A stretch of DNA of 64,000 nucleotides from assembly GCF_003334305.1 (NCBI RefSeq), contig NZ_QOWS01000007.1; one strand, given 5' to 3'. The notes under the pieces were generated by a model. The model had not been told where the DNA came from. It saw nothing but the letters and a program-made list of their open reading frames with translations, and ran no database searches. Of the stretch, positions 1 through 25,262 are shown one piece after another (position 1 is the stretch's first letter; each line of letters begins with the position of its first letter). The position numbers were made by a program, and so were the translations under genes. The DNA is from Escherichia coli (GTDB lineage: Bacteria; Pseudomonadota; Gammaproteobacteria; Enterobacterales; Enterobacteriaceae).

Positions 1-82
1 GCAGTTCGTTGGCTTTAGCCAGCACCTCTTTTACATCCTTAAACTGATATACATTGCCGAACAATGTGGTCTTTAGTTTCAT
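1..82 (-). CDS. eutB: Ethanolamine ammonia-lyase large subunit EutB, N-terminal 27 codons only (gene runs off the window start)
   Basis: Reverse complement of 1..82 translates MKLKTTLFGNVYQFKDVKEVLAKANEL, matching the EutB N-terminus; start codon 12 bp downstream of the eutA stop. Confidence 0.8.
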   Translation of the reverse strand, partial: MKLKTTLFGNVYQFKDVKEVLAKANEL

Positions 83-93
83 AAGTCGTTCCC

Positions 94-1497
94 TCAGGAA
101 GGAAATGCGAGTGATTTCACCGTCACCGGCACAACCGATCCGCCAAAAAGAGGCGTACCAATGTCGATATAGTCCCCCGCGCGGACAATCACTTCGTCAA
201 TGACTGCCAACGGGAGTTGTTGTAGCTGTGGGCGCAACAACATGCCCAGAGCTTTACCAAAGTCCTGCCCGGCCACCACCAGCAGGGGATGCGGATTCGG
301 AAAACGCGCGACGAAATCGACCAGCGCGTTGATGACCGTCAGTACCGCGGCGTAACGCACAGGCAGCGAGGCGGGAAGCGCCAGCACGTACGCGTCAGTT
401 TTGGGATCAAGATCCAGCTGAAGCAGCGCCTGTTGCCAGGCACTCACCAGATCCGTTTCATCAATCGGGATCGCCACCGGCAAATTGCGCAGCGGCAGTT
501 GTACGCCCTCCAGCCAGATTGTGCTGCCAGAGAGCGAAAGGGTATGTGCACCCGCGCCAATCACCGTGGCGCGTACGGTTTGCGCCGGAAACTGCACATT
601 CATCTCACGCAGGCGCGGATGGTCATGCAGCGCCGTTGCCAGAAGTGGGCCAATATCGGCAAAACAGAACGGGTCGGCGGGCTGGTGGCGATAACATTCG
701 CCCACGCCTCCAGAAAGCGTAATGATTTCGGGCGTAACACCTGCGGGCAGCAAACCGGTTTGCATCAATGCCTGCGCGAGCGGCGAAAGCGTTCCGTCAA
801 TCACTTCGACAATCAGCGCCGCCATCCGCCGGGTAACCTGCACCAGCTGCGCGCCGGTCAGCGAACGGGCGTCAGTGCCTGCACCGAAGCACTCATCCAC
901 AATCATCTGCCCCGGTTTATGAGCGTAAACCACGCGCCCCTGGCTGTCGGTTTCCAGCAGGCGACCACCGACGTTGAGACAGGCAGTGCCGCTGATTTTT
1001 CCGGCATCGAACAGGGCGTAGTTCGCGGTGCCACCGCCGATGTCGATATTCAGTACCCGACACAGCCGTTGTTCAGAAAGGGTTTGCGCCCCAGCTCCGT
1101 GACCGGCGATCACGGATTCGAGGTGCGGCCCGGCGCTGGCAACGACAAAATCCCCCAGCGATTGAGAGAGCGCCATCACCGCCGGGCGAGCATTGCGGGT
1201 TTTCGCGCTTTCACCGGTGATGATGATGGCACCAGAATCAACGCTTTCCGGCGCAATACCCGCAGCCTGATATTGCTCGAGTATTAAGGTTTTCAGTTCC
1301 GCTTCTTTTAAACCGCCCTGTTTATCGACAGGGGTAAAGAACACCGGACTTTGCCAGCTAATTTCGCGTTTAATGAATTCGTAGCGCGGCACCTGCGACA
1401 CCGCCGCACGGTTAACCAGCTCCAGGTGGGAGAAAATCACCTGGGTGGTGGTGGTGCCGATATCGATACCGACGCTCAATAGCTGGCGAGTGTTCAC
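94..1497 (-). CDS. eutA: Ethanolamine ammonia-lyase reactivating factor EutA
   Basis: 467-aa ORF, recognised EutA sequence; position in eut operon. Confidence 0.92.
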   Translation of the reverse strand: MNTRQLLSVGIDIGTTTTQVIFSHLELVNRAAVSQVPRYEFIKREISWQSPVFFTPVDKQGGLKEAELKTLILEQYQAAGIAPESVDSGAIIITGESAKTRNARPAVMALSQSLGDFVVASAGPHLESVIAGHGAGAQTLSEQRLCRVLNIDIGGGTANYALFDAGKISGTACLNVGGRLLETDSQGRVVYAHKPGQMIVDECFGAGTDARSLTGAQLVQVTRRMAALIVEVIDGTLSPLAQALMQTGLLPAGVTPEIITLSGGVGECYRHQPADPFCFADIGPLLATALHDHPRLREMNVQFPAQTVRATVIGAGAHTLSLSGSTIWLEGVQLPLRNLPVAIPIDETDLVSAWQQALLQLDLDPKTDAYVLALPASLPVRYAAVLTVINALVDFVARFPNPHPLLVVAGQDFGKALGMLLRPQLQQLPLAVIDEVIVRAGDYIDIGTPLFGGSVVPVTVKSLAFPS

Positions 1498-2720
1498 GAT
1501 TGTGCCTCCGCTTCGGTTTTAGTCGCGGTCGCGTCTTCTTTTGGCACCAGCATCATCGCCACGCCAATCGCCGTTACGCCGCCGATCAACTTGCCGACAA
1601 TCATCGGGAAGATCATGGCGTTCATGTTGGCAGCGGCGAAGCCTAAGTGGTCGCCCAGGGCGAAAGCAGCGGAAACGGCGAAGGCGCAGTTGATGACTTT
1701 GCCGCGGGTATCCATCTGCTTCATCATGCCGAACATCGGGATGTTGTTGGCAAGCGTTGCCACCATGCCGGCTGCCGCGATGTTGTTCATATTCAGTACT
1801 TTACCGACGCTCATCAGCGGTTTTTCAAACCAGCGAGTCAGCAGCAGCACCATTGGATACGCCCCTAACAGCACGCAGGAGATAGAACCGATAACTTCAA
1901 TGGCGCGCATCACTTCACCGGGTTTATCGCCAGGGGCCATAAAGATAGGATCCAGACCGGGGATCAGTTCCCAGCCAAGCAGGAATTTCACTACCGCAGC
2001 GGCAAGACCGAGGGTGATCAATGCAACGAGGAATTTGGCGAAGATCTGGAAGCCGTTGATCATTTTTTCCGGGATGAATTTCAGCCCCAGCGCCACCAGA
2101 ATCGCAACAATGATCACCGGGATCATGTTCATCAGGATCAGGGCGAAAGTGAATTCCACCGGCTGACCGTTGATCTGCACACCGGAGTACATAGCAACCA
2201 GACCACCAGCAATACAGCCAATCGGAATGGTCACAATGCCCGCCAGCACGCCGAGCGCCAGATAACGACGATCAGAAGGTTCGATAATGCCGAGCGCCAC
2301 CGGAATGGAAAACACAATCGTTGGCCCCATCATCGACCCGAGAATTAACCCAGAGTATAGCCACGCTGCTACGTCGCCGCCCGCCAGCTCTTTGGCGAGG
2401 AAGAAGCCGCCCATATCGCACGCCAGCAGCGTTCCGGCGAACATTGACGGGTTTGCGCCGAGCATTTCGTAAACCGGGATAATTACCGGCCCGAGTACGT
2501 GAGCCAGTACCGGTGCCAGCGCGGTCATACCGACCATCGCCAGACCCAGAGCGCCCATTGCCATAAAGCCTTCTTCGAACTGACCGCCAGATCCTTCGAT
2601 ACTTTTACCGAACTTACCGAGGAAACGAGCAGAACCGCCGAACTGCGACAGGATCCTGTCTACGGCAGCTATCAGCATAAAGAACATCATGATGTACATG
2701 ATGATTTCGTTAATTCCCAT
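1494..2720 (-). CDS. eutH: Ethanolamine permease EutH
   Basis: 408-aa highly hydrophobic ORF, recognised EutH; 4-bp overlap with eutA. Confidence 0.92.
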   Translation of the reverse strand: MGINEIIMYIMMFFMLIAAVDRILSQFGGSARFLGKFGKSIEGSGGQFEEGFMAMGALGLAMVGMTALAPVLAHVLGPVIIPVYEMLGANPSMFAGTLLACDMGGFFLAKELAGGDVAAWLYSGLILGSMMGPTIVFSIPVALGIIEPSDRRYLALGVLAGIVTIPIGCIAGGLVAMYSGVQINGQPVEFTFALILMNMIPVIIVAILVALGLKFIPEKMINGFQIFAKFLVALITLGLAAAVVKFLLGWELIPGLDPIFMAPGDKPGEVMRAIEVIGSISCVLLGAYPMVLLLTRWFEKPLMSVGKVLNMNNIAAAGMVATLANNIPMFGMMKQMDTRGKVINCAFAVSAAFALGDHLGFAAANMNAMIFPMIVGKLIGGVTAIGVAMMLVPKEDATATKTEAEAQS

Positions 2721-2749
2721 CGCCTTTACTCCCTGTTAGTTGTTATTTA

Positions 2750-2836
<87 letters not shown>

Positions 2837-4024
2837 TTATTGCGCCGCTGCGTACAAGCCGACAATCTGCTCCAGGCTGGCGGTACGCGGGTTGCTGCGC
2901 AGACAAATATCTTCCTGCGCGGCCTGCGCCCATGCACCGTAATGCGCAGATGTCGCGCCAACATCGCCCAGTCGTTTACCAATCCCAACTTCCGCAATCA
3001 GCTCACTTACCGCGTTAATAGCGTCATGATCGTCGGATTTTTTAGTTCGCAGTGCCCGACCAATCTGACTAAAGCGTTCACGACAAACCATCCGGTTAAA
3101 TTCCATCACTGTTGGCAGCAACATGGCGTTCGCCAGACCGTGCGGAATATGCAGCGCCGCGCCCGGCTGATGCGCCATCGCGTGGCACAACCCAAGACCC
3201 GCACTGGAAAACGCCATTCCCGCCATACATGAAGCCAGCAACATGCTCTCGCGCGCGGCAAGGTCGTGACCGTAGCCCACCGCTTTCGGCAGCGATTTGC
3301 CAATCATCGCAATGGCACCAATCGCCAGACTGTCGGTAAACGGTGTAGCGTTCAGGGCGCTGTATGCTTCAATGGCATGGGTTAACGCATCAATGCCGGT
3401 CATCGCCGTGACATGCGACGGCACACCTTCGGTCAATGCGGCGTCGAGGATCGCCACATCCGGCATCAGCGAGGCATGGGCTAACACCTGCTTGCGCCCG
3501 CTCACCGCGTCGATAATCACCGTTACATTGGTGGTTTCAGAGCCGGTTCCGGCGGTAGTTGGAATGGCAATCAGCGGCAAGCGCGGTTGCAGAACGCTGG
3601 TTTCTGACATCTCTGCCAGCGTGCTATCCGGGTTCGTCACCAGCAACGCCACGGCTTTCGCCGCATCCAGCACCGAGCCGCCGCCAAATGCGATCACCCC
3701 GTCACAACCTGACTCACGCAACTGCGCCACGGCTGCACACACGTCGGTAATGCACGGTTCGCCCACCGGACATAGCCAGAGCGTCATGGCGATACCTTTA
3801 ACGGCCAGGCTACGCGTCAGCCCGGCGGTCATCCCTGCCTGATGCAAAAAGCTGTCTGCCATCACGAACAGATGTTTCAGCCCACGCGTTTGCGCTTGCT
3901 GTCCGCAACTGCTCACCGAGCCCGGACCGCAAAGCGTCACCGGTGGAACGCTAAATGTTTTTACCCGTTGCAGATTCAGGGTATCGAACGCCTGAAAGAG
4001 CGCGGTCTGCAATTCATTTTGCAT
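2837..4024 (-). CDS. eutG: Ethanolamine utilisation alcohol dehydrogenase EutG (iron-containing ADH family)
   Basis: Track ORF is 404 aa; start chosen at internal MQNELQTALFQ (395 aa), which overlaps the eutJ stop in typical operon fashion. Confidence 0.88.
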   Translation of the reverse strand: MQNELQTALFQAFDTLNLQRVKTFSVPPVTLCGPGSVSSCGQQAQTRGLKHLFVMADSFLHQAGMTAGLTRSLAVKGIAMTLWLCPVGEPCITDVCAAVAQLRESGCDGVIAFGGGSVLDAAKAVALLVTNPDSTLAEMSETSVLQPRLPLIAIPTTAGTGSETTNVTVIIDAVSGRKQVLAHASLMPDVAILDAALTEGVPSHVTAMTGIDALTHAIEAYSALNATPFTDSLAIGAIAMIGKSLPKAVGYGHDLAARESMLLASCMAGMAFSSAGLGLCHAMAHQPGAALHIPHGLANAMLLPTVMEFNRMVCRERFSQIGRALRTKKSDDHDAINAVSELIAEVGIGKRLGDVGATSAHYGAWAQAAQEDICLRSNPRTASLEQIVGLYAAAQ

Positions 4025-4850
4025 ATAGCCCCTCCGCTTTCTCTCGCCCACTACTGGCGATCGCCAGCGGGGTCATAAACAAACTGTGCTGCGGTAAATG
4101 CACCTGTAACGCCGGGAATTGTTTGCGAAACAGTTCCGCCACGCCCGGTTGCATACAAGAGCCGCCCGCCAGCCATAAATCAGTAATGCCCTGCCCTTCA
4201 ATATGCCGGGCGACAATGTCCGCCATTTTTTCGTACACCGGTTTCACCGCGGGCCAAATCTCGTCACCATGACCGCGCTTGTACTGCTCTGCCTCTTCCA
4301 GCGAAATACGACGATTTCCGGCGAGAGTCAGAGAGATGTGATGTCCGCCGGTGGCTTCATCCGCCGAGTACGTCACCTTGCCCTTTTTCACGATGGCAAT
4401 GCCGGTAGTGCCGCCGCCGATATCCACTACACCGGCGTTGTCCAGTTGCAGCAGATCCGCGACTGCGGTTGGCTCATCCAGCACATGGCTCACTTCCAGC
4501 CCGGCAGATTCCAGCACGTTGATGGAAATACGCGGGTCCGTACCTGGAGGAAATGAAGTCGCCGCATGGCTAAAACGAAGACCGAATTGCTGCTCAAGAG
4601 TGTCGAGATGGCGACGAACAATGGTGACCGCACCGAAGAAATCCCAGACGATGCCGTCGCGGACCACATCGGCCCAGTCGAGGCATACCGCCACCGGCTG
4701 ACCGTCGCGGTCAACAACCATCGACACCACATCGCAGGTGCCCAGATCCACCCCCAGCCACAGCGGAGATTCCGTCGCGGCAGGCGTCTGGTTACACAGC
4801 GTTGCCGCCGTTTGCAGACGTGGGGTGAGCCATTGTTCGTCGTGCGCCAT
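4014..4850 (-). CDS. eutJ: Ethanolamine utilisation chaperone-like protein EutJ (actin/Hsp70 fold)
   Basis: 278-aa ORF, recognised EutJ. Confidence 0.9.
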   Translation of the reverse strand: MAHDEQWLTPRLQTAATLCNQTPAATESPLWLGVDLGTCDVVSMVVDRDGQPVAVCLDWADVVRDGIVWDFFGAVTIVRRHLDTLEQQFGLRFSHAATSFPPGTDPRISINVLESAGLEVSHVLDEPTAVADLLQLDNAGVVDIGGGTTGIAIVKKGKVTYSADEATGGHHISLTLAGNRRISLEEAEQYKRGHGDEIWPAVKPVYEKMADIVARHIEGQGITDLWLAGGSCMQPGVAELFRKQFPALQVHLPQHSLFMTPLAIASSGREKAEGLYAK

Positions 4851-4860
4851 CGGTTACTCC

Positions 4861-6264
4861 TTAAACAATGCGAAACGCATCGACTAATACACAGCGACGC
4901 AGACGGACAAACGTCCGCGCGCTGGTTACCCCTTCACCGGTTGGCGTGGTGATGGTCATGGTGGTCCAGCCTTCCCCGCCCAGCCCCAGCCCGGCAATGC
5001 ACGGTCCGTTCTTAACGAAAATGCTGGTATCAATGGCGTTCGCCATCTGGTTCATGTTTTCGATATTGCGCGAGTGCATTGCCGCCGTGTGGTGGCAACC
5101 GCCCTCCAGTTTCACCGCCAGCGCAATGGCATCCGCCACGTTGGCGACGCGCACGACGGGCAGCACCGGCATCATCAGTTCGGTCACGGCAAACGGATGT
5201 TCTGCAGTGGTTTCCACAAACAGCAAACGCGTTTCTTGCGGCACGTTCAGGCCGATTGCCGCCGCGATTTTCGCCGCATCGCGACCAACCCAGTCACGGC
5301 TGACGGTGCCTTTTCCGCGCTCGTCGATATTTTTCAGCAACACCGGTTGCAGCTGCTGCGCCTGTTCTGCGGTCAGTTTCACCGCGTGCTGGCCTTCCAT
5401 CAGACGCATCAGTTCATCGGCTACGCTATCAACAACAATCAGTACCTTTTCGTCGGCACAAATGATGTTGTTATCGAAAGAAGCGCCTTTGACGATGGAC
5501 TGAGCGGCACGGGCGAGGTCGGCGGTTTCATCCACCACTACCGGCGGGTTGCCAGCGCCTGCGGCAATCAGACGTTTATTGGTGTGTTTACGCGCCGCTT
5601 CTACTACCGCTTCGCCGCCGGTTACCACCAGCAGGCCGATACCCGGAAACTTGAACAAGCGTTGCGCGGTTTCGATATCCGGATTTGCCACAGTAACCAG
5701 TAAGTTTTCCGGCCCACCTGCGGCAACAATCGCCTGGTTGAGCAGCGTAATCGCCCGCTGGGAGACTTTTTTCGCCGCCGGATGCGGGGCAAAAATGACG
5801 CTGTTGCCCGCGGCAATCAGGCTGATGGCGTTATTAATTACGGTTGCCGCCGGGTTAGTGGACGGAGTTACCGAAGCCACCACGCCCCAGGGTGCGTTTT
5901 CAATTAGGGTCAGGCCGTTGTCGCCAGTCAGCACTTGCGGAGAGAGGCACTCAACGCCTGGTGTGCCGCGCGCCTGAGCGACGTTTTTTGCAAATTTATC
6001 TTCAACGCGCCCCATGCCGGTTTCACTGACGGCAAGTTCCGCTAAATCTCTGGCGTGTTTTTCGCCTGCTTCACGAATGGCAGCAATGGCTAACTGGCGC
6101 ATTGCCACGCTTTTTAACCCTTGCTGGGCGACTTTGGCTGCCGCAACGGCGTCATCCAGGGACGCGAAAACGCCCATCTCATGAACGGCGGCGGACGGCG
6201 TGTCACTGCTTTGCATTTTCAGCAGTACCGCTTTCACCACCTGTTCAATATCCTGTTGATTCAT
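4861..6264 (-). CDS. eutE: Acetaldehyde dehydrogenase (acetylating) EutE
   Basis: 467-aa ORF, aldehyde dehydrogenase family, recognised EutE. Confidence 0.92.
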   Translation of the reverse strand: MNQQDIEQVVKAVLLKMQSSDTPSAAVHEMGVFASLDDAVAAAKVAQQGLKSVAMRQLAIAAIREAGEKHARDLAELAVSETGMGRVEDKFAKNVAQARGTPGVECLSPQVLTGDNGLTLIENAPWGVVASVTPSTNPAATVINNAISLIAAGNSVIFAPHPAAKKVSQRAITLLNQAIVAAGGPENLLVTVANPDIETAQRLFKFPGIGLLVVTGGEAVVEAARKHTNKRLIAAGAGNPPVVVDETADLARAAQSIVKGASFDNNIICADEKVLIVVDSVADELMRLMEGQHAVKLTAEQAQQLQPVLLKNIDERGKGTVSRDWVGRDAAKIAAAIGLNVPQETRLLFVETTAEHPFAVTELMMPVLPVVRVANVADAIALAVKLEGGCHHTAAMHSRNIENMNQMANAIDTSIFVKNGPCIAGLGLGGEGWTTMTITTPTGEGVTSARTFVRLRRCVLVDAFRIV

Positions 6265-6275
6265 GATGTTCTGCC

Positions 6276-6563
6276 TTATTTGTGGAAAATTACCTGACCG
6301 CCAGACACCACCTCATCGACAATGCCAATCACGCACAGATCGACCGGTGACGTTTCGCTTTTATGCGCCTGGCGGGCGGAACTGCCACTCACCAGTAACA
6401 CCCACTCCCCGGTTCCCGCGCCAATATTGTCGATGGCGACGGCGCATTGCCCGTCAGGATTACCTTGTGGATCAATCATTTCCACCATCAGCAATTTGTC
6501 ATGCGCCAGTCCGTGATGGCGTACGGTACAAACAATTTGTCCAGTGACGACTGCCAGTTTCAT
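6276..6563 (-). CDS. eutN: Microcompartment vertex (pentamer) protein EutN
   Basis: 95-aa ORF, recognised EutN. Confidence 0.9.
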   Translation of the reverse strand: MKLAVVTGQIVCTVRHHGLAHDKLLMVEMIDPQGNPDGQCAVAIDNIGAGTGEWVLLVSGSSARQAHKSETSPVDLCVIGIVDEVVSGGQVIFHK

Positions 6564-6669
6564 ACCCGCCTCCGTGGCGTATTTCAGGTAAAAGCTCCCC
6601 CTACCCTCCGCAGAAGGTAAAATGAAAAAGGAGAGAGCGTGACGCCCGAATCGACGTCACACAGGGTGA

Positions 6670-6963
6670 TTACAGGTTGCTGCTATCGCCTTTCAGGCCG
6701 ATCGGGAAGACTTCTTCCAGGTCGCCGTGCGGACGCGGGATAACGTGTACAGATACCAGCTCGCCGATACGCTGTGCCGCTGCGGCACCTGCATCGGTCG
6801 CGGCTTTACAGGCTGCAACATCACCACGAACCATGGCAGTACACAGGCCGCCGCCAATCTGCTTAACACCAACCAGCTTGACGCGCGCAGCTTTCACCAT
6901 CGCGTCAGAAGCCTCAATCAGTGCAACCAGGCCCCGGGTTTCGATCATTCCTAATGCTTCCAT
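6670..6963 (-). CDS. eutM: Microcompartment shell protein EutM (BMC domain)
   Basis: Track ORF is 111 aa; start chosen at [22 protein letters not shown] (97 aa), canonical BMC-domain N-terminus. Confidence 0.9.
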
Positions 6964-7001
6964 TGTGCTTTCCTCTTTATCAGGGTCCAGAACGGGACCG
7001 T

Positions 7002-8018
7002 TCATTCAACCAGTGTTTGTAAACTGCTTTCGCGGTTCACTTCTGTCTGACGCGGCACAGCTGCCACCAGCGCCAGCTCGATAATTTCCTGCACGCTACA
7101 ACCACGAGAGAGATCGTGCATCGGCGCGGCAAGTCCTTGTATCAGTGGCCCGACGGCACGATATCCGCCGAGTCGTTGTGCGATTTTGTAACCAATATTT
7201 CCGGCTTCCAGCGACGGAAAAACCATCACATTGGCCTTGCCCTGTAGCGGGCTGGCAGGCGCTTTTTGCGCCGCCACTTCCGGCACGAAGGCGGCGTCAA
7301 ACTGTAACTCGCCATCCACCACCAGCTTTGGTGCGCGCTCACGGACGATTTCTGTCGCCTGCTGGACGTTAGCAACACAGGGGTGACGGGCGCTACCATT
7401 GCTGGAAAACGACAGCATCGCCACGCGCGGCTCTTCTCCGGTGATGGCGCGCCAGGTTTCGGCACTGGCAAGCGCGATATCCGCCAGCTGCGCCGCCGTC
7501 GGCTGTGGCACCACGCTGCAATCGGCAAAGCCCAACGCCGGGCCGCTGTACTGTGGCAACATCAGGAAAATGGAAGAGAGCGTTTTACAGCCTGGCTGCA
7601 AGCCGATAATGCGTAATCCGGCACGCAGCACATTTGCCGTGGAAGAGAGGTTGCCCGCGATACAGACATCCGCTTTACCGGCGCTGACCATTGCTGCGGC
7701 GAACATCAGAGGGTCGGTAAGTTTTTCCAGCGCATCCGGCGGCGTTTTTTCGCCCGCGCGGGCCAGCCAGCGATGAGCAAATTCTTCCCGCATTGCGAGG
7801 TTGCCATGCGGATCAATCACCTGTAGCCCGTCCATCGCCACGCCGTGACTGAGCGCAAACTGACGAAGTTCAAACGGATTGGCGACCAGAATGGGCGTTG
7901 CCAGACCTTGTTGATGTAAATATTGCGCGGCTTTCAGCACACGTTGGTCTAACGCATCCGGAAAAACCACTCTGGCGGGCGCTCGCAACGCCAGTTCACG
8001 ACAACGTTCAATAATCAT
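7002..8018 (-). CDS. eutD: Phosphotransacetylase EutD
   Basis: 338-aa ORF, recognised EutD. Confidence 0.92.
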
Positions 8019-8818
8019 TGCGTTTCCCCCAGTCGTTGTTGGATCTGCTTCACCGTTAGCGGCTGCTTCGTTACGCTCAGGATCATCATCACGTAGACCG
8101 TGCTGGAAAGGCGGTTCAGCGCCTGCAAAATGTCCGGGCGTAATACTTCAAAGCTGCGGGTGATAAACACCTGCGCCGCTACGGTTTCGGTTTCCCGCAC
8201 TTTGGTACGTAGCAGATTGAGCAACGCCGCATCGCGCCCGTGGCTGGCTTCCGGCACCAGATGATCGTGGTCGAGATAGCGCAGCGGCTGGTGAGAAAGT
8301 CGATGCAGATCTTCGTCAGAAAGCCCGACAATCGCCTGGCAGCCCAGCGGTTCACCCAGCGCATCGGCGCGCATAATGTTGCCAAGACGCGAACGGATAT
8401 CCGCCAGCCACGGCTGCCACGGTTCCGCCAGTTCAATTTGCAGCCACACTGCCAGCGCAATGGTGCTGTCGAGAACCGCGCGAAAACCCAGACGCGGATC
8501 GCTTTTGGCGACCATTTTTTCCGCCGACAGGTGAGTCAGCGTATCCGGCTTTTTTGCCACCGGCTGGCGGCACAGTTCGCAGCACGCCTGCGGATGTTCA
8601 TCGCTACTGGTCAGCCCATGAACGGGCTGCGGCTGCTGCTGTTCATCGTCAACAAACAGGCGGCCCTGCTCGTCAATAAACTTGATGCGCAGATGGCGGC
8701 TTTCCAGTAACTCCCGGGCAGAGGGCGTCAGGCGACTGTCCGCAGGGAGATGGATCTCTGCGCCTTCGCTGAGCGTATGGTTCGCTCTTAGCCATGCTTC
8801 GGTGATGAAATCTTTCAT
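8015..8818 (-). CDS. eutT: Cobalamin adenosyltransferase EutT
   Basis: 267-aa ORF, recognised EutT; 4-bp overlaps with flanking genes. Confidence 0.9.
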
Positions 8819-9516
8819 AGGGATTGCCAGTTAGCCGGCCAGGCGACATACAGGAATTTCACGCTGGATGTCGTACCAAATTCGATACTGGAGCCTTTCG
8901 GGATAAACATCACGTCACCCGCTTTGGCGATCATGGTTTCGCCTTCGTGGCGAACATGCAGCTCCCCTTCCAGCACCATGTCGATTTCGTCGTAGTTCAG
9001 GGTCCACGGGAAGAATGCGTTCTCCCACTGCATAAAACCAGCGGCCATGCTGCTGCCGTCGTCTCCGGTCACAAGATCAGTCAAGCCCACGCAATGCGGC
9101 TCTGCGCCGTCGAAACGACCAAACTTGACGCTGCTGCCATCAATCACTTTGATGCCGCCTTTGCCGGTCACCGATTTGAAGCTCGGCTGCATTGCGCCCT
9201 GCTCCAGCGACTGTTTTTCCTTCATCACTTTTTCCATCAGCTGTGCGACCAGGCTTTCGGTAAACTGGCCTTCCGGCAGCTGGGCAATGATGGTTTCGCG
9301 GATGCGCTGGCTTTCGGTTTTGTCGGCTGGCACGCTGGCGGGCACGGACGCCGTTACCGGGATCGATTCATCACATTCGGTGATGGTAAAACCCAGTAGA
9401 TCCGCCACTTCACGGGCTTCCGGGGTAATAATGCTGGCGCGCAGAACCACGGACATTGCCTGTTCGCCGCGCGCGTGTGCTTCACGAATATCATTCGCTG
9501 TGATGAGTTTTTTCAC
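8815..9516 (-). CDS. eutQ: Ethanolamine utilisation protein EutQ (cupin, acetate kinase activity)
   Basis: 233-aa ORF, recognised EutQ. Confidence 0.9.
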   Translation of the reverse strand: MKKLITANDIREAHARGEQAMSVVLRASIITPEAREVADLLGFTITECDESIPVTASVPASVPADKTESQRIRETIIAQLPEGQFTESLVAQLMEKVMKEKQSLEQGAMQPSFKSVTGKGGIKVIDGSSVKFGRFDGAEPHCVGLTDLVTGDDGSSMAAGFMQWENAFFPWTLNYDEIDMVLEGELHVRHEGETMIAKAGDVMFIPKGSSIEFGTTSSVKFLYVAWPANWQSL

Positions 9517-9970
9517 CTGCTTCCTCCTGTTTGGTGAGAGATGCCAGATAATCCACCAGTTGCTGCACGCTTTGCGGGTCGTGGCTGTTTAGCTCGAAAA
9601 TCGGCTCTTCGAAACCCGTCTCAAGCAATAACTTTCGCGTTGCGGCGACGTCAGCATCTGGCATGTCCGTTTTACTGATGACGGCGATTTGCCGTTTGCT
9701 GACGCCAATATCCAGCAACCCGGCAGGCAACCGACTTTCCGGGTCATTTGCGCCATGGACATAGATCAGCATGTCTACATCCTGTAGCGTGGTAATTAAG
9801 GCGTGATACCAGCGGGGATGGCTAAAATATTCACCCGGCGTATCAATATCGCCCTTATCATTAAATTCCACGGCCTGTGTTTTTCTGGCGAGGGTATAAT
9901 TCCCCTGCAACGCATTAAATAACGTTGTTTTTCCTGCCCCGACGGTACCCACAAACGCAATTCGTTTCAT
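9491..9970 (-). CDS. eutP: Ethanolamine utilisation protein EutP (P-loop NTPase)
   Basis: 159-aa ORF with Walker A GTVGAGKTT, recognised EutP. Confidence 0.9.
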   Translation of the reverse strand: MKRIAFVGTVGAGKTTLFNALQGNYTLARKTQAVEFNDKGDIDTPGEYFSHPRWYHALITTLQDVDMLIYVHGANDPESRLPAGLLDIGVSKRQIAVISKTDMPDADVAATRKLLLETGFEEPIFELNSHDPQSVQQLVDYLASLTKQEEAGEKTHHSE

Positions 9971-9982
9971 GAATGCCTCGTA

Positions 9983-10318
9983 TTAACTTTTGGTCATTTC
10001 ACAAAGCGTATAATTTAATAAGCGACCTAAACCGCTGACGGTTTGTGATAACGCTTCTTCTACTGCGCCCACCGAGCCATAAATCACCAATGCACCGCTG
10101 AAGCGGTCGAGAAAACCGATATGCACATCAGCGGCTTTCAGCGCTAAATCACCGGCGATCATCGCCGTTTCGCCGGGAGTTAGCGTCATAATGCCAATTG
10201 CGCCCGCATCCGGAACGCCGATTTTCTTCGCCAGTTCCTCACCGGGATGCGCGATGAGATGCGCCAGTGTGACCTGTTTGCCGGGCACAAATTCCTGAAT
10301 GATGCGTTCTTTATCCAT
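9983..10318 (-). CDS. eutS: Microcompartment shell protein EutS
   Basis: Track ORF is 135 aa; start chosen at [15 protein letters not shown] (111 aa). Confidence 0.87.
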
Positions 10319-10567
10319 GAGTCGCCGCCTGTGAAAAACTTTCGTGTATCGTGACAATTTTTCGTCAGAGTAAATAACAAAATTCGGCAAGCGCGTTTAA
10401 AAGGTGAGGTAGATCACTAAGAATGGAGAGATATTCGCTGTGGTGCATAAACTTTCATATGCAACGCATGAATATAAATAAAATAATATCGAGATATTAT
10501 ATAGACTGCTTTTTTTATTATTCGCAAACTCAGTAATAAGCTTTACTAATATATTGCAGCCAAACCG

Positions 10568-10591
10568 CTTACCCTGAATATTCAGGGTAAG
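10568..10591 (-). terminator. Perfect 24-bp hairpin just downstream of maeB stop; possible maeB terminator, no strong U-tract
   Basis: cttaccctgaatattcagggtaag is a perfect inverted repeat 20 bp past the maeB stop. Confidence 0.3.
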
Positions 10592-10610
10592 CGTGAGAGT
10601 TAAAAAAGAA

Positions 10611-12890
10611 TTACAGCGGTTGGGTTTGCGCTTCAACCACGGCCAGCGCCACCATGTTGACGATACGACGCACCGATGCGATCGGCGTTAACACGTGAAC
10701 CGGTTTCGCCACGCCCATCAGCACCGGACCGACAGTCACACCTTCCGAGCTGGAAACGCGCAGTAAGTTGTAACTAATGCGGGCAGCTTCCATGTTCGGC
10801 ATCACCAGAATATTGGCAGAACCTTTCAAAGGGCTGTCCGGCATACGGTCGTTGCGAATCGCTTCCACCAGCGCTGCATCGCCGTGCATTTCACCATCAA
10901 TCATCAGATCTGGCGCACGATCCCTGACCAGTTCCAGCGCCTGACGCATTTTGCTCGACGACGGGCAGTCAGAAGAACCAAAGTTGGAGTGCGACAACAG
11001 AGCAACGCGCGGCTCAATACCAAAACGACGGACAGTTTCTGCCGCCATCAAGGTGATCTCCGCCAGCTCTTCTGCGTCTGGTTCGTCATTGACGTAGGTA
11101 TCGGCAATAAAGGTGTTACCACTCGGCAGCAGCAGCGCGTTCATTGCACCTGCGGTGTGAACGCCATCGCGATAACCAAAGACATTTTTCACCACGCTAA
11201 AATGTTCATGATAATCGCCCACCGTACCGCAGATCATTGCATCGGCTTCCCCACGCTGAACCATGATCGCGCCGATCACTGTCGGGTTACTGATCAGCGC
11301 CCGCTGCGCCTGTTCCTGAGTGACACCGCGACGCTTCATGATCTGGAAGTATTCGGTCCAGTACTCTTTAAAGCGCGGATCGGATTCGTTATTGACGATC
11401 TCAAAATCAACGCCCGCTTTGATCTGCAAGCCCAGTTTCTGAATGCGCATTTCGATCACGTTCGGACGACCGATAAGGATCGGTTTCGCCAGTCCCAGCG
11501 TTACCAGTTCCTGAGTGGCATGCAGAACGCGCGCCTCTTCCCCTTCTGGCAGAACAACGCGCTTCGGCGCTTTGCGAGCCTGGGAGAAAATCGGCTTCAT
11601 AAACAGGTTGGTTTTGTAAACGAACTCAGTCAGCTTGTCGATGTAGACGTCGAAATCAGCAATCGGACGCGTCGCCACGCCCGACTCCATCGCGGCTTTA
11701 GCGACCGCAGGAGCGATCTTAACGATCAAGCGCGGATCAAACGGTTTTGGAATGATGTATTCCGGACCAAAGCTCAGATCCTGATCGCCATACGCTGAAG
11801 CCACCACTTCGCTCTGTTCGGCGTGGGCCAGTTCCGCAATCGCGCGTACCGCCGCCAGTTTCATCTCTTCATTGATAGCCGTTGCGCCAACATCCAGCGC
11901 GCCACGGAAGATAAACGGGAAGCAAAGGACGTTGTTGACCTGGTTTGGATAGTCAGAACGACCGGTGCAAATGATGGCATCCGGACGCACTTCTTTCGCC
12001 AGCGGCGGCAGAATTTCCGGTTCCGGGTTCGCCAGCGCCAGGATCATTGGCGCACGAGCCATTTTCTTCACCATTTCCTGGGTCAGCACTTTCGGGCCGG
12101 AACATCCAAGGAAAATATCCGCGCCTTCAATCACATCATCGAGGGTACGTTTGCCGTCATCCACCACCGCATATGCGGCTTTGGTTTCCGCCATGTTTGG
12201 CTCACGGCCCTGATAGATAACGCCTTTTGAATCGCAAACCACGATGTTATGTTTTTGCAGACCCAGCGCTACCAGCAGGTTCATACAGGCGATTGCTGCG
12301 GCACCCGCGCCGGAAACCACCATCCGCACGTCGGAGATGTTTTTCTCCACCACGCGCAAGCCGTTGAGGATGGCGGCAGTGCTGATGATTGCCGTGCCGT
12401 GCTGATCGTCGTGGAATACCGGAATATTCATCCGCTCGCGCAGTTTCTGTTCAATATAGAAACATTCTGGCGCTTTAATGTCTTCGAGGTTGATTCCGCC
12501 GAAGGTCGGTTCGAGCGCAGCGACAACTTCAATAAATTTGTCCGGGTCGAGTTCATCAACTTCAATGTCAAATACATCAATCCCGGCGAATTTCTTAAAC
12601 AGAACGCCCTTGCCTTCCATCACCGGTTTGCCAGCCAGCGCGCCAATGTTGCCTAACCCCAGCACCGCCGTACCGTTAGAGATCACCGCCACCAGGTTAC
12701 CGCGCGCGGTATATTTGTAGGCTTTTAACGGGTCTTTTTCGATTTCAAGACAAGGTGCGGCAACGCCTGGTGAGTAGGCCAGCGCCAGATCGCGCTGCGT
12801 TGCCAGAGGCTTGGTTGGAGAAACCTGGATTTTCCCTGGAACTGGAAATTCATGGAAATCAAGTGCACTTTGTTTTAACTGGTCATCCAT
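10611..12890 (-). CDS. maeB: NADP-dependent malic enzyme MaeB
   Basis: 759-aa ORF with malic enzyme domain plus C-terminal PTA-like domain, recognised MaeB. Confidence 0.95.
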
Positions 12891-13178
12891 TTGGTTGTTC
12901 CTTTCACGTAACGTTCACAAATAAAGTGTGTGGGCAACAGCCCCTGCCCACAACGTGGCGCACATTATTACCCTGCCGGAGTCTTCAGACTTTGAGCAAG
13001 TCCAAACTCTCACCATTAATATAATGTTTTGGTAATAATCCTATAACACTGATGTTACCTGCTTAATCCAGCAATACCATGCCTGTCTGCTATGCTTTTT
13101 TGATGCGTTTAGCGAAATTTCTCAGAAGTGTGAATTAACGCACTCATCTAACACTTTACTTTTCAAGGAGTATTTCCT

Positions 13179-14129
13179 ATGAACGAGTTAGACGGCATCA
13201 AACAGTTCACCACTGTCGTGGCAGACAGCGGCGATATTGAGTCCATTCGCCATTATCATCCCCAGGATGCCACCACCAATCCTTCGCTGTTACTCAAGGC
13301 TGCCGGATTATCACAATATGAGCATTTAATAGACGATGCTATCGCCTGGGGTAAAAAAAATGGCAAGACCCAGGAACAACAGGTGGTCGCAGCGTGTGAC
13401 AAACTGGCGGTCAATTTCGGTGCTGAAATCCTCAAAATCGTACCCGGTCGCGTGTCAACAGAAGTTGATGCACGCCTCTCTTTTGATAAAGAAAAGAGTA
13501 TTGAGAAGGCGCGCCATCTGGTGGACTTGTATCAGCAACAAGGCGTTGAGAAATCACGCATTTTGATCAAACTGGCTTCGACCTGGGAAGGCATTCGCGC
13601 GGCCGAAGAGCTGGAAAAAGAAGGTATTAACTGCAACCTGACGCTGCTGTTTTCTTTTGCCCAGGCGCGGGCCTGTGCAGAAGCGGGCGTTTTTCTGATT
13701 TCGCCGTTTGTCGGGCGTATTTATGACTGGTATCAGGCACGCAAGCCGATGGACCCGTATGTGGTGGAAGAAGATCCGGGCGTTAAATCGGTGCGCAATA
13801 TCTACGACTACTATAAGCAACACCACTATGAAACCATTGTGATGGGCGCGAGCTTCCGTCGCACCGAACAAATCCTCGCCTTAACCGGCTGCGATCGACT
13901 GACTATCGCACCGAATTTGCTGAAGGAGCTGCAGGAAAAAGTTTCGCCAGTGGTACGTAAATTAATCCCGCCTTCTCAGACGTTCCCACGCCCAGCACCC
14001 ATGAGCGAAGCGGAGTTCCGTTGGGAGCACAATCAGGATGCGATGGCGGTAGAAAAACTGTCTGAAGGCATTCGTCTGTTCGCCGTTGATCAACGCAAAC
14101 TGGAAGATCTTCTTGCCGCCAAACTATAA
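13179..14129 (+). CDS. talA: Transaldolase A
   Basis: 316-aa ORF, recognised TalA. Confidence 0.95.
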
Positions 14130-14148
14130 ACCAGCCACGGAGTGTTAT

Positions 14149-16152
14149 ATGTCCCGAAAAGACCTTGCCAATGCGATTCGCGCACTCAGTATGGATGCGG
14201 TACAAAAAGCCAATTCTGGTCATCCCGGCGCGCCGATGGGCATGGCTGATATTGCCGAAGTGCTGTGGAACGATTTTCTTAAACATAACCCTACCGACCC
14301 AACCTGGTATGATCGCGACCGCTTTATTCTTTCCAACGGTCACGCGTCGATGCTGCTCTACAGTTTGCTACATCTGACCGGTTACGACCTGCCGCTGGAA
14401 GAACTGAAGAACTTCCGTCAGTTGCATTCGAAAACCCCAGGCCACCCGGAGATTGGCTATACGCCAGGCGTTGAAACCACCACCGGCCCGCTTGGACAAG
14501 GTTTGGCGAACGCCGTCGGGCTGGCGATAGCGGAACGTACATTGGCGGCGCAGTTTAACCAGCCAGACCATGAGATCGTCGATCACTTCACCTATGTGTT
14601 TATGGGCGACGGCTGCCTGATGGAAGGTATTTCCCACGAAGTCTGTTCGCTGGCAGGCACGCTGGGACTGGGCAAGCTGATTGGTTTTTACGATCACAAC
14701 GGTATTTCCATCGACGGTGAAACAGAAGGCTGGTTTACCGACGATACGGCAAAACGTTTTGAAGCCTATCACTGGCATGTGATCCATGAAATCGACGGTC
14801 ACGATCCGCAGGCGGTGAAGGAAGCGATCCTTGAAGCGCAAAGCGTGAAAGATAAGCCGTCGCTGATTATCTGCCGTACGGTGATTGGCTTTGGTTCGCC
14901 GAATAAAGCAGGTAAGGAAGAGGCGCACGGCGCACCACTGGGGGAAGAAGAAGTGGCGCTGGCACGGCAAAAACTGGGCTGGCACCATCCGCCATTTGAG
15001 ATCCCTAAAAAGATTTATCACGCCTGGGATGCCCGTGAAAAAGGCGAAAAAGCGCAGCAGAGCTGGAATGAGAAGTTTGCCGCCTATAAAAAGGCTCATC
15101 CGCAACTGGCAGAAGAGTTTACCCGACGGATGAGCGGTGGTTTACCGAAGGACTGGGAGAAAACGACTCAGAAATATATCAATGAGTTACAGGCAAATCC
15201 GGCGAAAATCGCTACCCGTAAGGCTTCGCAAAATACGCTTAACGCTTACGGGCCGATGCTGCCTGAGTTGCTCGGCGGTTCGGCGGATCTGGCTCCCAGC
15301 AACCTGACCATCTGGAAAGGTTCTGTTTCGCTGAAGGAAGATCCAGCGGGCAACTACATTCACTACGGGGTGCGTGAATTTGGCATGACCGCTATCGCCA
15401 ACGGCATCGCGCACCACGGCGGCTTTGTGCCGTATACCGCGACGTTCCTGATGTTTGTTGAATACGCCCGTAACGCCGCGCGGATGGCGGCACTGATGAA
15501 AGCGCGGCAGATTATGGTTTATACCCACGACTCAATTGGCCTGGGCGAAGATGGTCCGACGCACCAGGCTGTTGAGCAACTGGCCAGCCTGCGCTTAACG
15601 CCAAATTTCAGCACCTGGCGACCGTGCGATCAGGTGGAAGCGGCGGTGGGCTGGAAGCTGGCGGTTGAGCGCCACAACGGACCGACGGCACTGATCCTCT
15701 CAAGGCAGAATCTGGCCCAGGTGGAACGTACGCCGGATCAGGTTAAAGAGATTGCTCGTGGCGGTTATGTGCTGAAAGACAGCGGCGGTAAGCCAGATAT
15801 TATTTTGATTGCCACCGGTTCAGAGATGGAAATTACCCTGCAAGCGGCAGAGAAATTAGCAGGAGAAGGTCGCAATGTACGCGTAGTTTCCCTGCCCTCG
15901 ACCGATATTTTCGACGCCCAGGATGAGGAATATCGGGAGTCGGTGTTGCCTTCTAACGTTGCGGCTCGCGTGGCGGTGGAAGCAGGTATTGCCGATTACT
16001 GGTACAAGTATGTTGGTCTGAAAGGGGCAATTGTCGGGATGACGGGTTACGGGGAATCTGCTCCGGCGGATAAGCTGTTCCCGTTCTTTGGCTTTACCGC
16101 CGAGAATATTGTGGCAAAAGCGCATAAGGTGCTGGGAGTGAAAGGTGCCTGA
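14149..16152 (+). CDS. tktB: Transketolase 2
   Basis: Track ORF is 688 aa; start chosen at [27 protein letters not shown] (667 aa), 20 bp after the talA stop. Confidence 0.93.
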
Positions 16153-16157
16153 TGGTG

Positions 16158-16232
16158 ATCGCCGGATGCTGATTGCCGGATGCGACGCTGACGCGTCTTA
16201 TCCGGCCTACAGCGTCTTATCCGGCCTACATG
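16158..16232. repeat. REP/BIME cluster between convergent tktB and ypfG
   Basis: Repeated gccggatg / cttatccggcctaca units. Confidence 0.6.
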
Positions 16233-16247
16233 TCCCCGCAATTTTGT

Positions 16248-17291
16248 TTAACGGGTGATCCACAACGTGGGCCAGGCGTCTGGCCCATGCCAGTTATCGC
16301 AGGTGGGTTCTGCGGCATAACGCACCAGGCGAAAACGCTGACCGTCAAAGCGCCAGCGCGCCTGAATGCCACAATCGCTTAATCCGCGCCCTTTCGCTAA
16401 GGTCACCAGTTCACGCGATTTCTCATCAAATGTTGCGTTCATCAGTTCCAGTTCATTCGTCTCCTGACCGTTGTTGAACGGCAAACGCAACCGAACCGGG
16501 CGCGAGGCTAGTGGCTTTTTACGCGACACAATCCATGCCAAATCAATGGTGTTATAGGCCCCTGCCTCACAGCTAATCATCATCAGCGCTTTATCATCAG
16601 TCAGCGCAGTGACATTCACCTCACGACGTAACGGATCAAGCGAGCAGCGCAGACCATTCATCCGCCAGTTTCCATAATCCAGCAAATCGTTGCGTTCTTC
16701 GAGTGAGAGTGGCGTCGGCGTTGGGTTAACCACCGCGACCTCTTTCAGCGCAGGCGCGGGCGGTACGCTGAGCGGCGGTTCGTCCCCTTTCTTGATCCAC
16801 GCGGTTTCACTGCCAACGCGCTTTTGCTGAGCATCAATAAACAACAACGCCGCTTTTAAGCCACTCAGAGAAATGGTCTGATTGCCGTCGCGTAAGGTGA
16901 TCGCCTTCCCTTCCTGAATCATCTGCAAAAACGCGGTGATGGTTGCCGTATCATCGGTTACTAATAACCATGGTGAAATCCGCCACTTGTCACCACTTAA
17001 CGCCAACGGCTCACCATCTAACAGCAGCCGTGGCGCTATCTCTCCTTCAGACGCATCCGGCGACTTCAACCCGCCGCGCTCAATACGTAAAACGGCATCG
17101 GTATGCGCCCCGGCGCTGCGGCTCAGGGTCATCACCAGTCCATTATGATCGCCCGTATTGCGCGCCACGCAGAAGTTTTGGTTATTACAGGTGACCTGCC
17201 AGTCGGAAAACGCCCGTTGCGCTGGTGCCGCCCACACCAAAGACGTCGGCAACAAAGCGAAAAAAAAGAGAAGGAAAATGCGATAGCGCAT
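16248..17291 (-). CDS. ypfG: DUF1176 protein YpfG, signal peptide-bearing
   Basis: 347-aa ORF with N-terminal hydrophobic signal sequence, recognised YpfG. Confidence 0.88.
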   Translation of the reverse strand: MRYRIFLLFFFALLPTSLVWAAPAQRAFSDWQVTCNNQNFCVARNTGDHNGLVMTLSRSAGAHTDAVLRIERGGLKSPDASEGEIAPRLLLDGEPLALSGDKWRISPWLLVTDDTATITAFLQMIQEGKAITLRDGNQTISLSGLKAALLFIDAQQKRVGSETAWIKKGDEPPLSVPPAPALKEVAVVNPTPTPLSLEERNDLLDYGNWRMNGLRCSLDPLRREVNVTALTDDKALMMISCEAGAYNTIDLAWIVSRKKPLASRPVRLRLPFNNGQETNELELMNATFDEKSRELVTLAKGRGLSDCGIQARWRFDGQRFRLVRYAAEPTCDNWHGPDAWPTLWITR

Positions 17292-17416
17292 GGACGGTAC
17301 GACCCCAGAAGTTCAAACAAACAGCACAAGTCGTATCTTCGTTGCGCAGGTAGCGCGGCTCAATCAGATTTGTCGGATTGAGCCAATAATAAACAACGAA
17401 ATATTATTGTTATTTT

Positions 17417-17992
17417 TCAGTCCATTAAATGTGACGTTTGCAAATAGTTAAGCAATAACACCGTCTTACCGTCACGTATCTCGCCGGTTTTGATCATCTC
17501 CAGCGCCTGGCTGAACGGCAGCTCGAGCACTTCAATATCTTCATCTTCAACACCGCCACCGGCGTTAGCGCGCTGATTGTCACTGTATTCGGCGATAAAA
17601 AAGTGGATTAGCTCAGTCACACCGCCAGGCGACATATACAGTTCAAATAATTTGCGCACTTCGCCCACTTCATAGCCCGTCTCTTCAATCGCTTCTTTAC
17701 GAATGCACACTTCCGGTTCGTCGTTATCCAGCAGCCCGGCGCAGGTTTCAATCAGCTGCCCGCTTTCATTGCCATTAACCCAGGTAGCGACACGGAACTG
17801 ACGAATCAGAACCACGGTCTTTTTCTTCGCGTTGTACAGGAGGATCGTCGCACCATTACCGCGATCGTAAACTTCACGTTTATGGCGGATAACTTCGCCA
17901 TCTTTGCGCGTGAGATCGTAAGTAATGTTGTGCAGGGTGAAATAGTTATCGGAGAGAATTTTGTCTTTAATGAGGGTGATTTGTTGCGTCAT
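17417..17992 (-). CDS. nudK: GDP-mannose pyrophosphatase NudK (Nudix hydrolase)
   Basis: Track ORF is 200 aa; start chosen at [15 protein letters not shown] (191 aa); Nudix box present. Confidence 0.87.
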
Positions 17993-18059
17993 ACCGACTC
18001 CACAGCGCGAAATGAACAATTATATTACGCTGTGAAGTCGGGTTTGTCTGCGCAGGCTA

Positions 18060-20039
18060 TCAGTGAGATTTGACTGATTTTACCCCCAGCCAGTCAATAA
18101 TCCCCTGTGCCGCATGACGTCCTTCTGCCATTGCGGTAACCACCAGATCCGCACCACGCACGGCGTCGCCACCGGCGAAGATTTTCGGATTGGTGGTCTG
18201 GTAACGGTACTGGCTTTCCACATCCGCGATGATGCGGCCCCATTTGTCTACCGTTACACCGTGCGACTCCAGCCACGGCATCCCGTGTGGATTGAAGCCA
18301 AACGCCATAATCACCGCATCGGCTGGCATGACAAATTCACTGCCCTCAATCGGTACAGGTCGCCGACGCCCCTGGGCATCCGGCTCGCCAAGACGCGTGC
18401 GCAGGAAACGAATCCCGCAGACGTGACCTTGTTCATTCAGCTCAAGCGCCACCGGCTGGACGTTAAATTCGAAGTTGGCCCCCTCTTCGCGGGCGTTCCT
18501 CACCTCTTTCTTCGAGCCTGGCATGTTAGCTTCATCACGACGATAAGCGCAGGTGACGTTACTCGCGCCGTGGCGCAGCGCAGTACGCACACAGTCCATC
18601 GCGGTGTCGCCGCCGCCCAGTACCACGACGTTAAGTCCGGCGGTATTGATAAACGGCTCTTCCGGTAGCTCTTCGAGCCCCATCACCTGTTTAGTGTTGG
18701 CAATGAGGAACGGCAGCGCGTCATAAACGCCCGGCGCATCTTCATTGGGTAAACCCGCTTTCATGGAACGGTAAGTGCCTACGCCAACGAAGACCGCGTC
18801 GTATTGTTCCAAAAGCGAATCCAAAGAGACATCTTTACCCACTTCACAATTGAGTTCGAAGTGAATCCCCATCGCGCTGAAGATTTCCCGACGGCGTGCC
18901 AGCAGGGATTTATCCAGTTTGAAAGAAGGAATGCCGAAAGTGAGCAAGCCACCGATTTCTGGATGGCGATCGTACACCATCACCCCCACGCCATTGCGGG
19001 TCAGAACATCCGCACAGGCCAGCCCTGCCGGACCTGCACCGATAATCGCCACCCGCTTGTCCACTTTGGTGACATGGCTTAAGTCAGGACGCCAACCTTT
19101 CGCCAACGCCTGATCTGAAATGTAGCGTTCAATGTTGCCGATAGTTACCGCGCCGTGCTCATCGCGAATAGTACAGGCACCTTCACACAAACGGTCTTGC
19201 GGACAAACGCGTCCGGTAATTTCCGGCAGGGTGTTGGTCTGGTGAGAAAGCTCGACGGCGGCGTCGATGTTTCCGGCTTTCACCAGTTCAATCCACTGCG
19301 GTATATGGTTATGCAGCGGGCAGGTCCATTCACAAACGCTGTGCTCGCCGCACTTAAGGCAGCGCGAGGCTTCCCGTTGTGCCTGGTCGGCGCGAAATGG
19401 CAGATAAATTTCATCAAAACCGGTTTTGCGCGCTTCAATCGCCAGTTTATCCGGCTCGCCACGCGCGGGCGTTGCCTGCATTTGTTCGACTTTACTCATT
19501 ACCGGCATTTCTTGCGCCGCGGTACTGGCATGCCACGGTTGATGTTCCTGACGCGCGGTGCGCAAGCGGCGGGATTTCGCCATGCCGGAGAGTGCGACGT
19601 CAGTGACCAGTTGCAGCGCGTCCGCCGGGCAATTCTCAACACAGGCAGGACCGTTTTCGCGCCCCGCACAAAGGTCGCATTTATGCGCCGTGGCTTTTAC
19701 TTTTCCTGCCGCGACGGGTGTCAGGACGATTTGCATCGTACCAAAAGGACAGGCCACCACGCAGGATTTACAGCCAATACACTTTTGCTGATTGACCTGA
19801 ATGCTGTCATCAACGTGGCTGATTGCGCCATTAGGGCAGCTACGGGCGCAGGGCGCATCTTCACAATGGTGACAGGTCACTGCACTACGTTGCTGTTGAT
19901 GTTTGATAACCGTAATTCGGGGATGAAAATGGTGTTGGCTCAGGACATGTTGCTCATCATTGTGAGCCATGACACAGGCGATTTCACAAGCATGACAACC
20001 CAGACATTGCTGACTGTTGGCCATAATAAAACGATTCAT
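18060..20039 (-). CDS. aegA: Putative Fe-S/FAD oxidoreductase AegA (GltD-like with ferredoxin-type Cys clusters)
   Basis: 659-aa ORF with multiple CxxCxxCxxxCP motifs and a GltD-like NAD(P)-binding domain, recognised AegA. Confidence 0.9.
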   Translation of the reverse strand: MNRFIMANSQQCLGCHACEIACVMAHNDEQHVLSQHHFHPRITVIKHQQQRSAVTCHHCEDAPCARSCPNGAISHVDDSIQVNQQKCIGCKSCVVACPFGTMQIVLTPVAAGKVKATAHKCDLCAGRENGPACVENCPADALQLVTDVALSGMAKSRRLRTARQEHQPWHASTAAQEMPVMSKVEQMQATPARGEPDKLAIEARKTGFDEIYLPFRADQAQREASRCLKCGEHSVCEWTCPLHNHIPQWIELVKAGNIDAAVELSHQTNTLPEITGRVCPQDRLCEGACTIRDEHGAVTIGNIERYISDQALAKGWRPDLSHVTKVDKRVAIIGAGPAGLACADVLTRNGVGVMVYDRHPEIGGLLTFGIPSFKLDKSLLARRREIFSAMGIHFELNCEVGKDVSLDSLLEQYDAVFVGVGTYRSMKAGLPNEDAPGVYDALPFLIANTKQVMGLEELPEEPFINTAGLNVVVLGGGDTAMDCVRTALRHGASNVTCAYRRDEANMPGSKKEVRNAREEGANFEFNVQPVALELNEQGHVCGIRFLRTRLGEPDAQGRRRPVPIEGSEFVMPADAVIMAFGFNPHGMPWLESHGVTVDKWGRIIADVESQYRYQTTNPKIFAGGDAVRGADLVVTAMAEGRHAAQGIIDWLGVKSVKSH

Positions 20040-20244
20040 AACGACCTTCTTTTTTGGTTGTAAAAACCTTATTCTTTATATGAGTGTTGTTATTACCCGA
20101 CTTACAGGGGAATCGGCAATGTTCATGTGCCCAGAATAAGTAACTATTTCGCTATAAACTGTGGCAGATCAAATAATCCCATCACTGACTAAATTGTGTT
20201 TCAGCGAACTGGAACATTAATGATTTTTTGTGGAGAAGACGCGT

Positions 20245-21945: not shown

Positions 21946-22020
21946 TGCCTCCTACTGACCAAAGAATACTTGCACTTAAGGTTCAGTATAAAAGGGCATG
22001 ATAATTTACATTAACTCCTT

Positions 22021-22038
22021 TTTTTCTCCACGATTGGC
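22021..22038 (+). promoter_or_regulatory. BaeR-box-like site upstream of acrD
   Basis: tttttctccacgattggc matches the published BaeR consensus TTTTTCTCCATDATTGGC, about 70 bp upstream of the acrD start. Confidence 0.5.
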
Positions 22039-22108
22039 TCGTACCTTGCCGCTACAGTGAAGCAAGTCAAGCCTACAACGATACGCAGAAACACGAGGTC
22101 CTCTTTTA

Positions 22109-25222: not shown

Positions 25223-25228
25223 GCAATA

Positions 25229-25262
25229 AAAAAGGCGACATGCCAATGTGTCGCCTTTTTCA
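25229..25262 (+). terminator. Rho-independent terminator after acrD
   Basis: Hairpin ggcgacatgccaatgtgtcgcc followed by a T-run (tttttc). Confidence 0.7.

Follow-up and report, generated by a model that had tools for sequence, protein, structure and literature searches.

An uninterrupted eutA-eutB junction in the eut operon of an Escherichia coli chromosome outside the MG1655 lineage

The first 100 bases of the Escherichia coli DNA analyzed here (a stretch of 64,000 nt, referred to as the window) almost certainly represent the eutA-eutB junction of the 17-gene E. coli eut operon in its normal, unoccupied state, carried by a chromosome other than that of K-12. The anatomy of the sequence, the frequency of this arrangement in the population, the duplication of a short core at occupied sites and the intact state of the genes were all observed directly. 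Ethanolamine is a nutrient in the gut and the urinary tract and has been linked to the competitive fitness of E. coli. The insertion of the cryptic prophage CPZ-55 at this site, the accompanying 8-bp duplication, the prevalence of interrupted sites, the designation of the site as a hot spot and the associated phenotype are all already known. The finding is therefore of little significance in itself, as it describes the default state of the species and indicates a sequence that is not derived from MG1655 and a strain that probably uses ethanolamine.

Junction anatomy and operon content

On the minus strand, direct reading of the window gives the eutA stop codon TGA (96..94), an 11-nt spacer (83..93) and the eutB start codon ATG (82..80), in the arrangement CTTCC-TGA-GGGAACGACTT-ATG. 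The original prediction placed eutB 12 bp after the eutA stop, which holds as an offset, since the A of the ATG is the twelfth base after the stop, but the gap itself measures 11 nt. The annotated gap is also 11 nt in strains SK1144, A7 and W3110. A Shine-Dalgarno-like GAGG motif (95..92) lies 9 nt ahead of the eutB ATG, partly within the eutA stop codon, and is a putative ribosome-binding site for eutB. The 5' end of eutB, which codes for the large subunit of ethanolamine ammonia-lyase, spans 1..82 on the minus strand and comprises 27 codons before the window edge, as identified by translation and by the RefSeq annotation of identical DNA. Translated from 82 to 1 on the minus strand, this segment reads MKLKTTLFGNVYQFKDVKEVLAKANEL, the N-terminus of EutB. 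Neither an integrase nor an att duplication nor any foreign or prophage DNA was found between eutA and eutB in the window.

Twelve complete genes, all intact and on the minus strand, lead from eutS to eutA. The first gene of the operon is eutS (9983..10318; 111 aa), followed by eutP (9491..9970; 159 aa), eutQ (8815..9516; 233 aa, GTG start), eutT (8015..8818; 267 aa), eutD (7002..8018; 338 aa, annotated as pta in RefSeq), eutM (6670..6963; 97 aa), eutN (6276..6563; 95 aa), eutE (4861..6264; 467 aa), eutJ (4014..4850; 278 aa), eutG (2837..4024; 395 aa), eutH (1494..2720; 408 aa, without amino acid differences from K-12) and eutA (94..1497; 467 aa, GTG start), which codes for the ethanolamine ammonia-lyase reactivase and differs from its K-12 counterpart at 7 amino acids. 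The description of a 17-gene-type operon visible in this DNA is an overstatement, as the window contains these 12 genes and 27 codons of eutB, and the remainder of eutB as well as eutC, eutL, eutK and eutR lie outside it.

The missing part can be read from a genome of identical sequence. All 64,000 of the 64,000 window bases match E. coli strain A7, an isolate from orangutan faeces (NZ_CP028767.1, 3394825..3458824), with 0 mismatches, and the first 25 kb are 100% identical to many E. coli chromosomes. In A7, eutA is directly followed by intact eutB (453 aa), eutC, eutL, eutK and eutR, and then by hemF. The order eutS-P-Q-T-D-M-N-E-J-G-H-A-B-C-L-K-R is thus found on a single strand, from eutS to the start of eutB in the window and from eutB to eutR in A7. 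The signature enzyme EutBC, the reactivase EutA and the shell proteins EutS, EutM, EutN, EutL and EutK are all present according to the RefSeq annotation of the identical DNA. All 17 Eut proteins of A7 have the K-12 lengths, 0 internal stops and 0-7 amino acid differences, and EutB shows 0 differences over its 453 aa. The upstream region, whose extension had been suggested as a check, contains full-length eutBCLKR in A7.

As the window stops 82 bases into eutB, it would by itself also be compatible with an operon that is truncated or rearranged just upstream, the eutB piece being a remnant. Decayed eut operons do exist, as exemplified by strains Res13-Lact-PEB21-38-A and LF3-1, yet both of these carry an island at the junction, which the window does not. 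Moreover, in the 64-kb-identical A7 genome, eutB is not a remnant followed by prophage genes, and eutC, eutL, eutK and eutR are equally intact. Among other genomes with a contiguous junction, the sampled ones have eutB annotated with no pseudogene flag reported. A truncated operon is, therefore, extremely improbable.

The intergenic gaps of the eut genes in A7 equal those in K-12 with two exceptions, namely eutA-eutB (11 vs. 6,801 nt) and eutG-eutH (116 vs. 216 nt). The eutH-eutG spacer of the window (2721..2836, 116 nt) contains one REP/BIME unit, while K-12 and SK1144 contain two tandem units (216 nt). This difference is ordinary copy-number variation inside the operon.

An integration site shared by different islands

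In MG1655 (NC_000913.3), the feature annotated as “cryptic prophage CPZ-55” occupies 2558691..2565480 (6,790 bp; 5692..12481 of the extracted locus) between eutB (b2441) and eutA (b2451), in agreement with the position given for it in the original prediction. It carries intZ and yffL to yffS in the direction opposite to eut. The sequence TCAGGAAG forms a direct repeat at both ends of CPZ-55, on the eutB side and on the eutA side, and is found in the window as one copy of 8 bp (94..101, without strand assignment) that covers the eutA stop codon. Because there is one copy instead of the two in MG1655, the window represents an empty integration site. The same 8-bp core flanks three different islands on either side: the 6.8-kb island of MG1655 and, in two unrelated strains, a 9.3-kb island of ETEC1731 (10700..20000 of the extracted locus) and a 13.0-kb island of BMH-17-0027 (14000..26990 of the extracted locus). 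For all three, attL (left flank and core) and attR (core and right flank) rebuild positions 60..130 of the window exactly. Two other strains harbor IntZ-type islands at the same core (7380..16000 and 16100..26750 of the extracted loci). Since different islands use the same 8-bp repeat, positions 94..101 can be assigned as the empty attB core, i.e., the crossover core, for a family of IntZ-type tyrosine integrase islands that includes CPZ-55. Both the 8-bp duplication of TCAGGAAG and the integration beside the eutA stop codon have been published (PMC6379469), and the eutA/eutB site has been drawn as a “prophage insertion hot spot,” with a UPEC isolate that carries a novel prophage there (PMC6652756).

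In the proposed mechanism, IntZ-type tyrosine integrases would insert small phage-like islands at the TCAGGAAG core, with CPZ-55 being one of them. As the core includes the eutA stop codon, both coding sequences stay intact after insertion. CPZ-55 spares the eutA and eutB coding sequences as well as the eutB ribosome-binding region, and places 6.8 kb of oppositely oriented DNA into the eut transcription unit.

Among the genes carried by the other IntZ-type islands are those for helix-turn-helix regulators, an HNH endonuclease and a hypothetical protein of 726 aa. In two strains, both with partial eut deletions, the islands contain gadC-like and murI-like genes together with IS elements. The junction of Res13-Lact-PEB21-38-A is occupied by an island and eutBCLK are lost; in LF3-1, the junction is likewise occupied, eutQ to eutA are lost and eutB contains an internal stop. 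Decay of eut genes at occupied loci would fit a loss of selection after interruption of the operon. For CPZ-55 itself, a PHROGs scan of its nine proteins identified one integrase and, for YffO (9112..9528 of the extracted MG1655 locus), a match to phrog_1482, a family of phage terminase small subunits (E = 5.5e-13). Three further hits, which passed the E-value threshold of 0.001 by a small margin, connected YffL with two replication-protein (replication-initiator) families and YffS with a transcriptional-regulator family. CPZ-55 may, as far as these protein matches indicate, be a degraded phage satellite and not a prophage remnant; none of the papers searched links CPZ-55 with satellites.

A census of 5,426 complete E. 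coli genomes in RefSeq, queried with positions 1..400 of the window, revealed an uninterrupted junction, seen as one match, in 4,965 genomes (91.5%). The uninterrupted junction is the norm of the species. About 459 genomes showed a non-contiguous match over the query, and the sampled cases break at 94 or 101, i.e., at the core. Full-length CPZ-55 was detected in 213 genomes, of which the sampled ones were mostly K-12 laboratory derivatives, and in about 200 more genomes an intZ-like gene (80-90% identity) is accompanied by other cargo. The interrupted share of 8.5% agrees with the 8% reported for 638 genomes (PMC6379469). The different integrase-bearing islands, each with the same duplicated 8-bp core, identify the occupied states as derived. 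Together with the 4,965 of 5,426 genomes in which the site is empty, this supports, by inference, the proposal that the contiguous arrangement is ancestral.

K-12 lineages and the history of the empty site

The window aligns to MG1655 with 98.1-99.4% identity across its length and several indels (BLAST). It shows neither CPZ-55 nor the near-100% identity to NC_000913 that would place it in the MG1655 lineage, and the earlier statement that the sequence is not MG1655 is borne out by the absence of the insert and by the degree of divergence. The situation is different for K-12 as a whole. W3110 (NC_007779) exhibits a contiguous eutA-eutB arrangement without CPZ-55 (gap at 14127..14137 of the extracted locus) and matches the window at each of the 71 bases compared (60..130). 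Consequently, an empty junction excludes MG1655 and derivatives such as BW25113 but not all of K-12, a useful correction, as the empty eutA-eutB junction is no marker of “non-K-12.” Over the eut genes, the window and W3110 share 98.2-98.9% identity. As judged by sequence comparison, the exclusion of K-12 rests on this 1-2% nucleotide divergence and not on the junction.

W3110 and MG1655 are 100% identical from eutA to eutS and differ at the junction, which implies that, within the K-12 laboratory lineage, the island was either acquired or precisely excised. This raises the question of whether an IntZ-type island once occupied the junction of the window as well and was precisely excised, an event that would regenerate a perfect attB. 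The presence or absence of the island differs between relatives as close as MG1655 (occupied) and W3110 (empty), the empty state of W3110 is scarless, and islands with the same core are scattered over strains. However, the window contains no trace of an island, the empty state is that of the large majority of genomes, and, among the matches listed, the closest genomes (100% identity over 25 kb) run unbroken through the junction. A site restored by precise excision and one that was never occupied would be indistinguishable by sequence. A never-occupied site is the simpler reading, because the empty state is very common and the closest genomes listed match through the junction, and restoration is accordingly considered very unlikely. 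The functional conclusion is the same for a never-occupied and for a restored site.

Expression, neighboring sequence and known eut systems

In a EUT1-type operon, transcription would be expected to proceed as one unit from a promoter upstream of eutS that depends on EutR, ethanolamine and B12. A consensus scan for promoters and terminators over positions 1..11000 of the window did not rise above chance overall, with 1 promoter-like match vs. 5.8 expected and 15 terminator-like matches vs. 13.3 expected, and yielded no strong sigma-70 match upstream of eutS. A weak sigma-70 match is expected at an activator-dependent promoter, so that this result argues neither for nor against a promoter at this position. 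Aligned with K-12, the maeB-eutS intergenic region (10319..10610, minus strand), the presumed site of the main eut promoter region, shows no differences other than two indels of one base each and three substitutions, which are confined to the maeB-proximal part. Work in Salmonella and E. coli has located the main promoter PI upstream of eutS (PMC7617246). With only 11 nt, the gap between eutA and eutB has no room for a terminator. A plus-strand hairpin at 8..23 was considered as a terminator candidate; it lies within eutB in antisense orientation and was taken as a chance occurrence.

RNA polymerase starting from the promoter upstream of eutS would be expected to read through eutA into eutBCLKR, and ribosomes ending eutA would sit next to the eutB start. 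The consequences of an interruption have been described for the CPZ-55 carrier BW25113, in which ethanolamine elicits a response from eutS and eutR, whereas eutB is not induced and no microcompartments are formed (PMC7617246). With ethanolamine as nitrogen source, BW25113 fails to grow; scarless deletion of the prophage restores growth, and the resulting strain, “BW25113 eut+,” behaves like the eut+ strain W3110 (PMC11334477). The 17 intact genes in A7, the near-identity to K-12 upstream of eutS and these prophage-removal experiments in BW25113 indirectly support the view that the eut operon of the window is likely functional as one transcription unit. By extension from the literature on other strains, transcription as a single unit and growth on ethanolamine are both probable. 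Ethanolamine use also needs genes for B12 uptake and adenosylation, which lie outside the window.

In the eutM-eutN spacer (6564..6669, 106 nt, the same length as in K-12), a 10-bp GC-rich hairpin (6662..6637, minus strand) is followed by a T-rich run and has a terminator-like appearance. It could lower the expression of genes downstream of eutM, a lead to be read against a scan total at chance level.

A further reading is a switch at the 8-bp core, which overlaps the eutA stop and the putative eutB ribosome-binding site: by inserting into this core and leaving it precisely, IntZ-type islands could turn ethanolamine catabolism off and on in a heritable and reversible way, in the manner of “active lysogeny.” In that event, the window would represent the ON state. 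Several points are compatible with a switch: MG1655 and W3110 differ at the locus only by the island, the empty site is scarless, eut genes have decayed in some occupied strains, and scarless removal of the prophage restores growth (PMC11334477). Such a switch is nevertheless regarded as improbable.

Outside the eut operon, the window deviates from K-12 at several loci. A vapB-vapC type II toxin-antitoxin pair is located between ypfJ and purC (31315..32140), where 826 bp replace 67 bp of K-12; the pair occurs in 1,615 of the 5,426 complete genomes surveyed. The gene hyfD, coding for subunit D of hydrogenase 4 (40055..41285), carries a 209-bp internal deletion relative to K-12, with the deletion point near 40811..40813. 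In A7, whose sequence is identical, the gene is annotated as frameshifted, and other genomes share the deletion junction, for example those of strain H15 and the O103:H2 strain FWSEC0007. Owing to the deletion and frameshift in hyfD, hydrogenase 4 may be inactive in this lineage. In addition, hyfG exceeds its K-12 counterpart by 48 bp (1,716 vs. 1,668 bp), and the BLAST alignment to K-12 breaks at about 44686..44725. No Rfam family was detected at gathering thresholds in the whole 64-kb window.

Among known eut systems, the closest counterpart is the EUT1-type 17-gene operon found in Salmonella enterica LT2 and in the majority of E. coli, including Nissle 1917, W3110 and CFT073, where the comparison with Salmonella draws on general knowledge as well as on PMC7617246 and PMC11334477. 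The genes occur in the same order and orientation and with the same overlaps, and the 11-nt eutA-eutB spacer and the intact state of all genes are shared. The junction is 100% identical to those of CFT073, SK1144 and W3110. Nothing substantial sets the window apart from this type, as the differences amount to one REP/BIME unit in eutH-eutG instead of the two in K-12 and a few amino acid substitutions. With UPEC U71, ETEC1731 and BMH-17-0027, which carry IntZ-integrase islands at the eutA/eutB hot spot, the window shares the site as an unoccupied target; its attB core is the core used in ETEC1731 and BMH-17-0027, while these two carry 9-13 kb of other cargo. The eut locus of MG1655 and BW25113 has the same flanking genes and 8-bp core as the window, and in neither arrangement is the eutA or the eutB coding sequence affected. 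MG1655-type strains are ethanolamine-negative (PMC11334477, PMC7617246). In MG1655, a 6,790-bp insert separates two copies of TCAGGAAG, whereas the window retains a single core and no insert.
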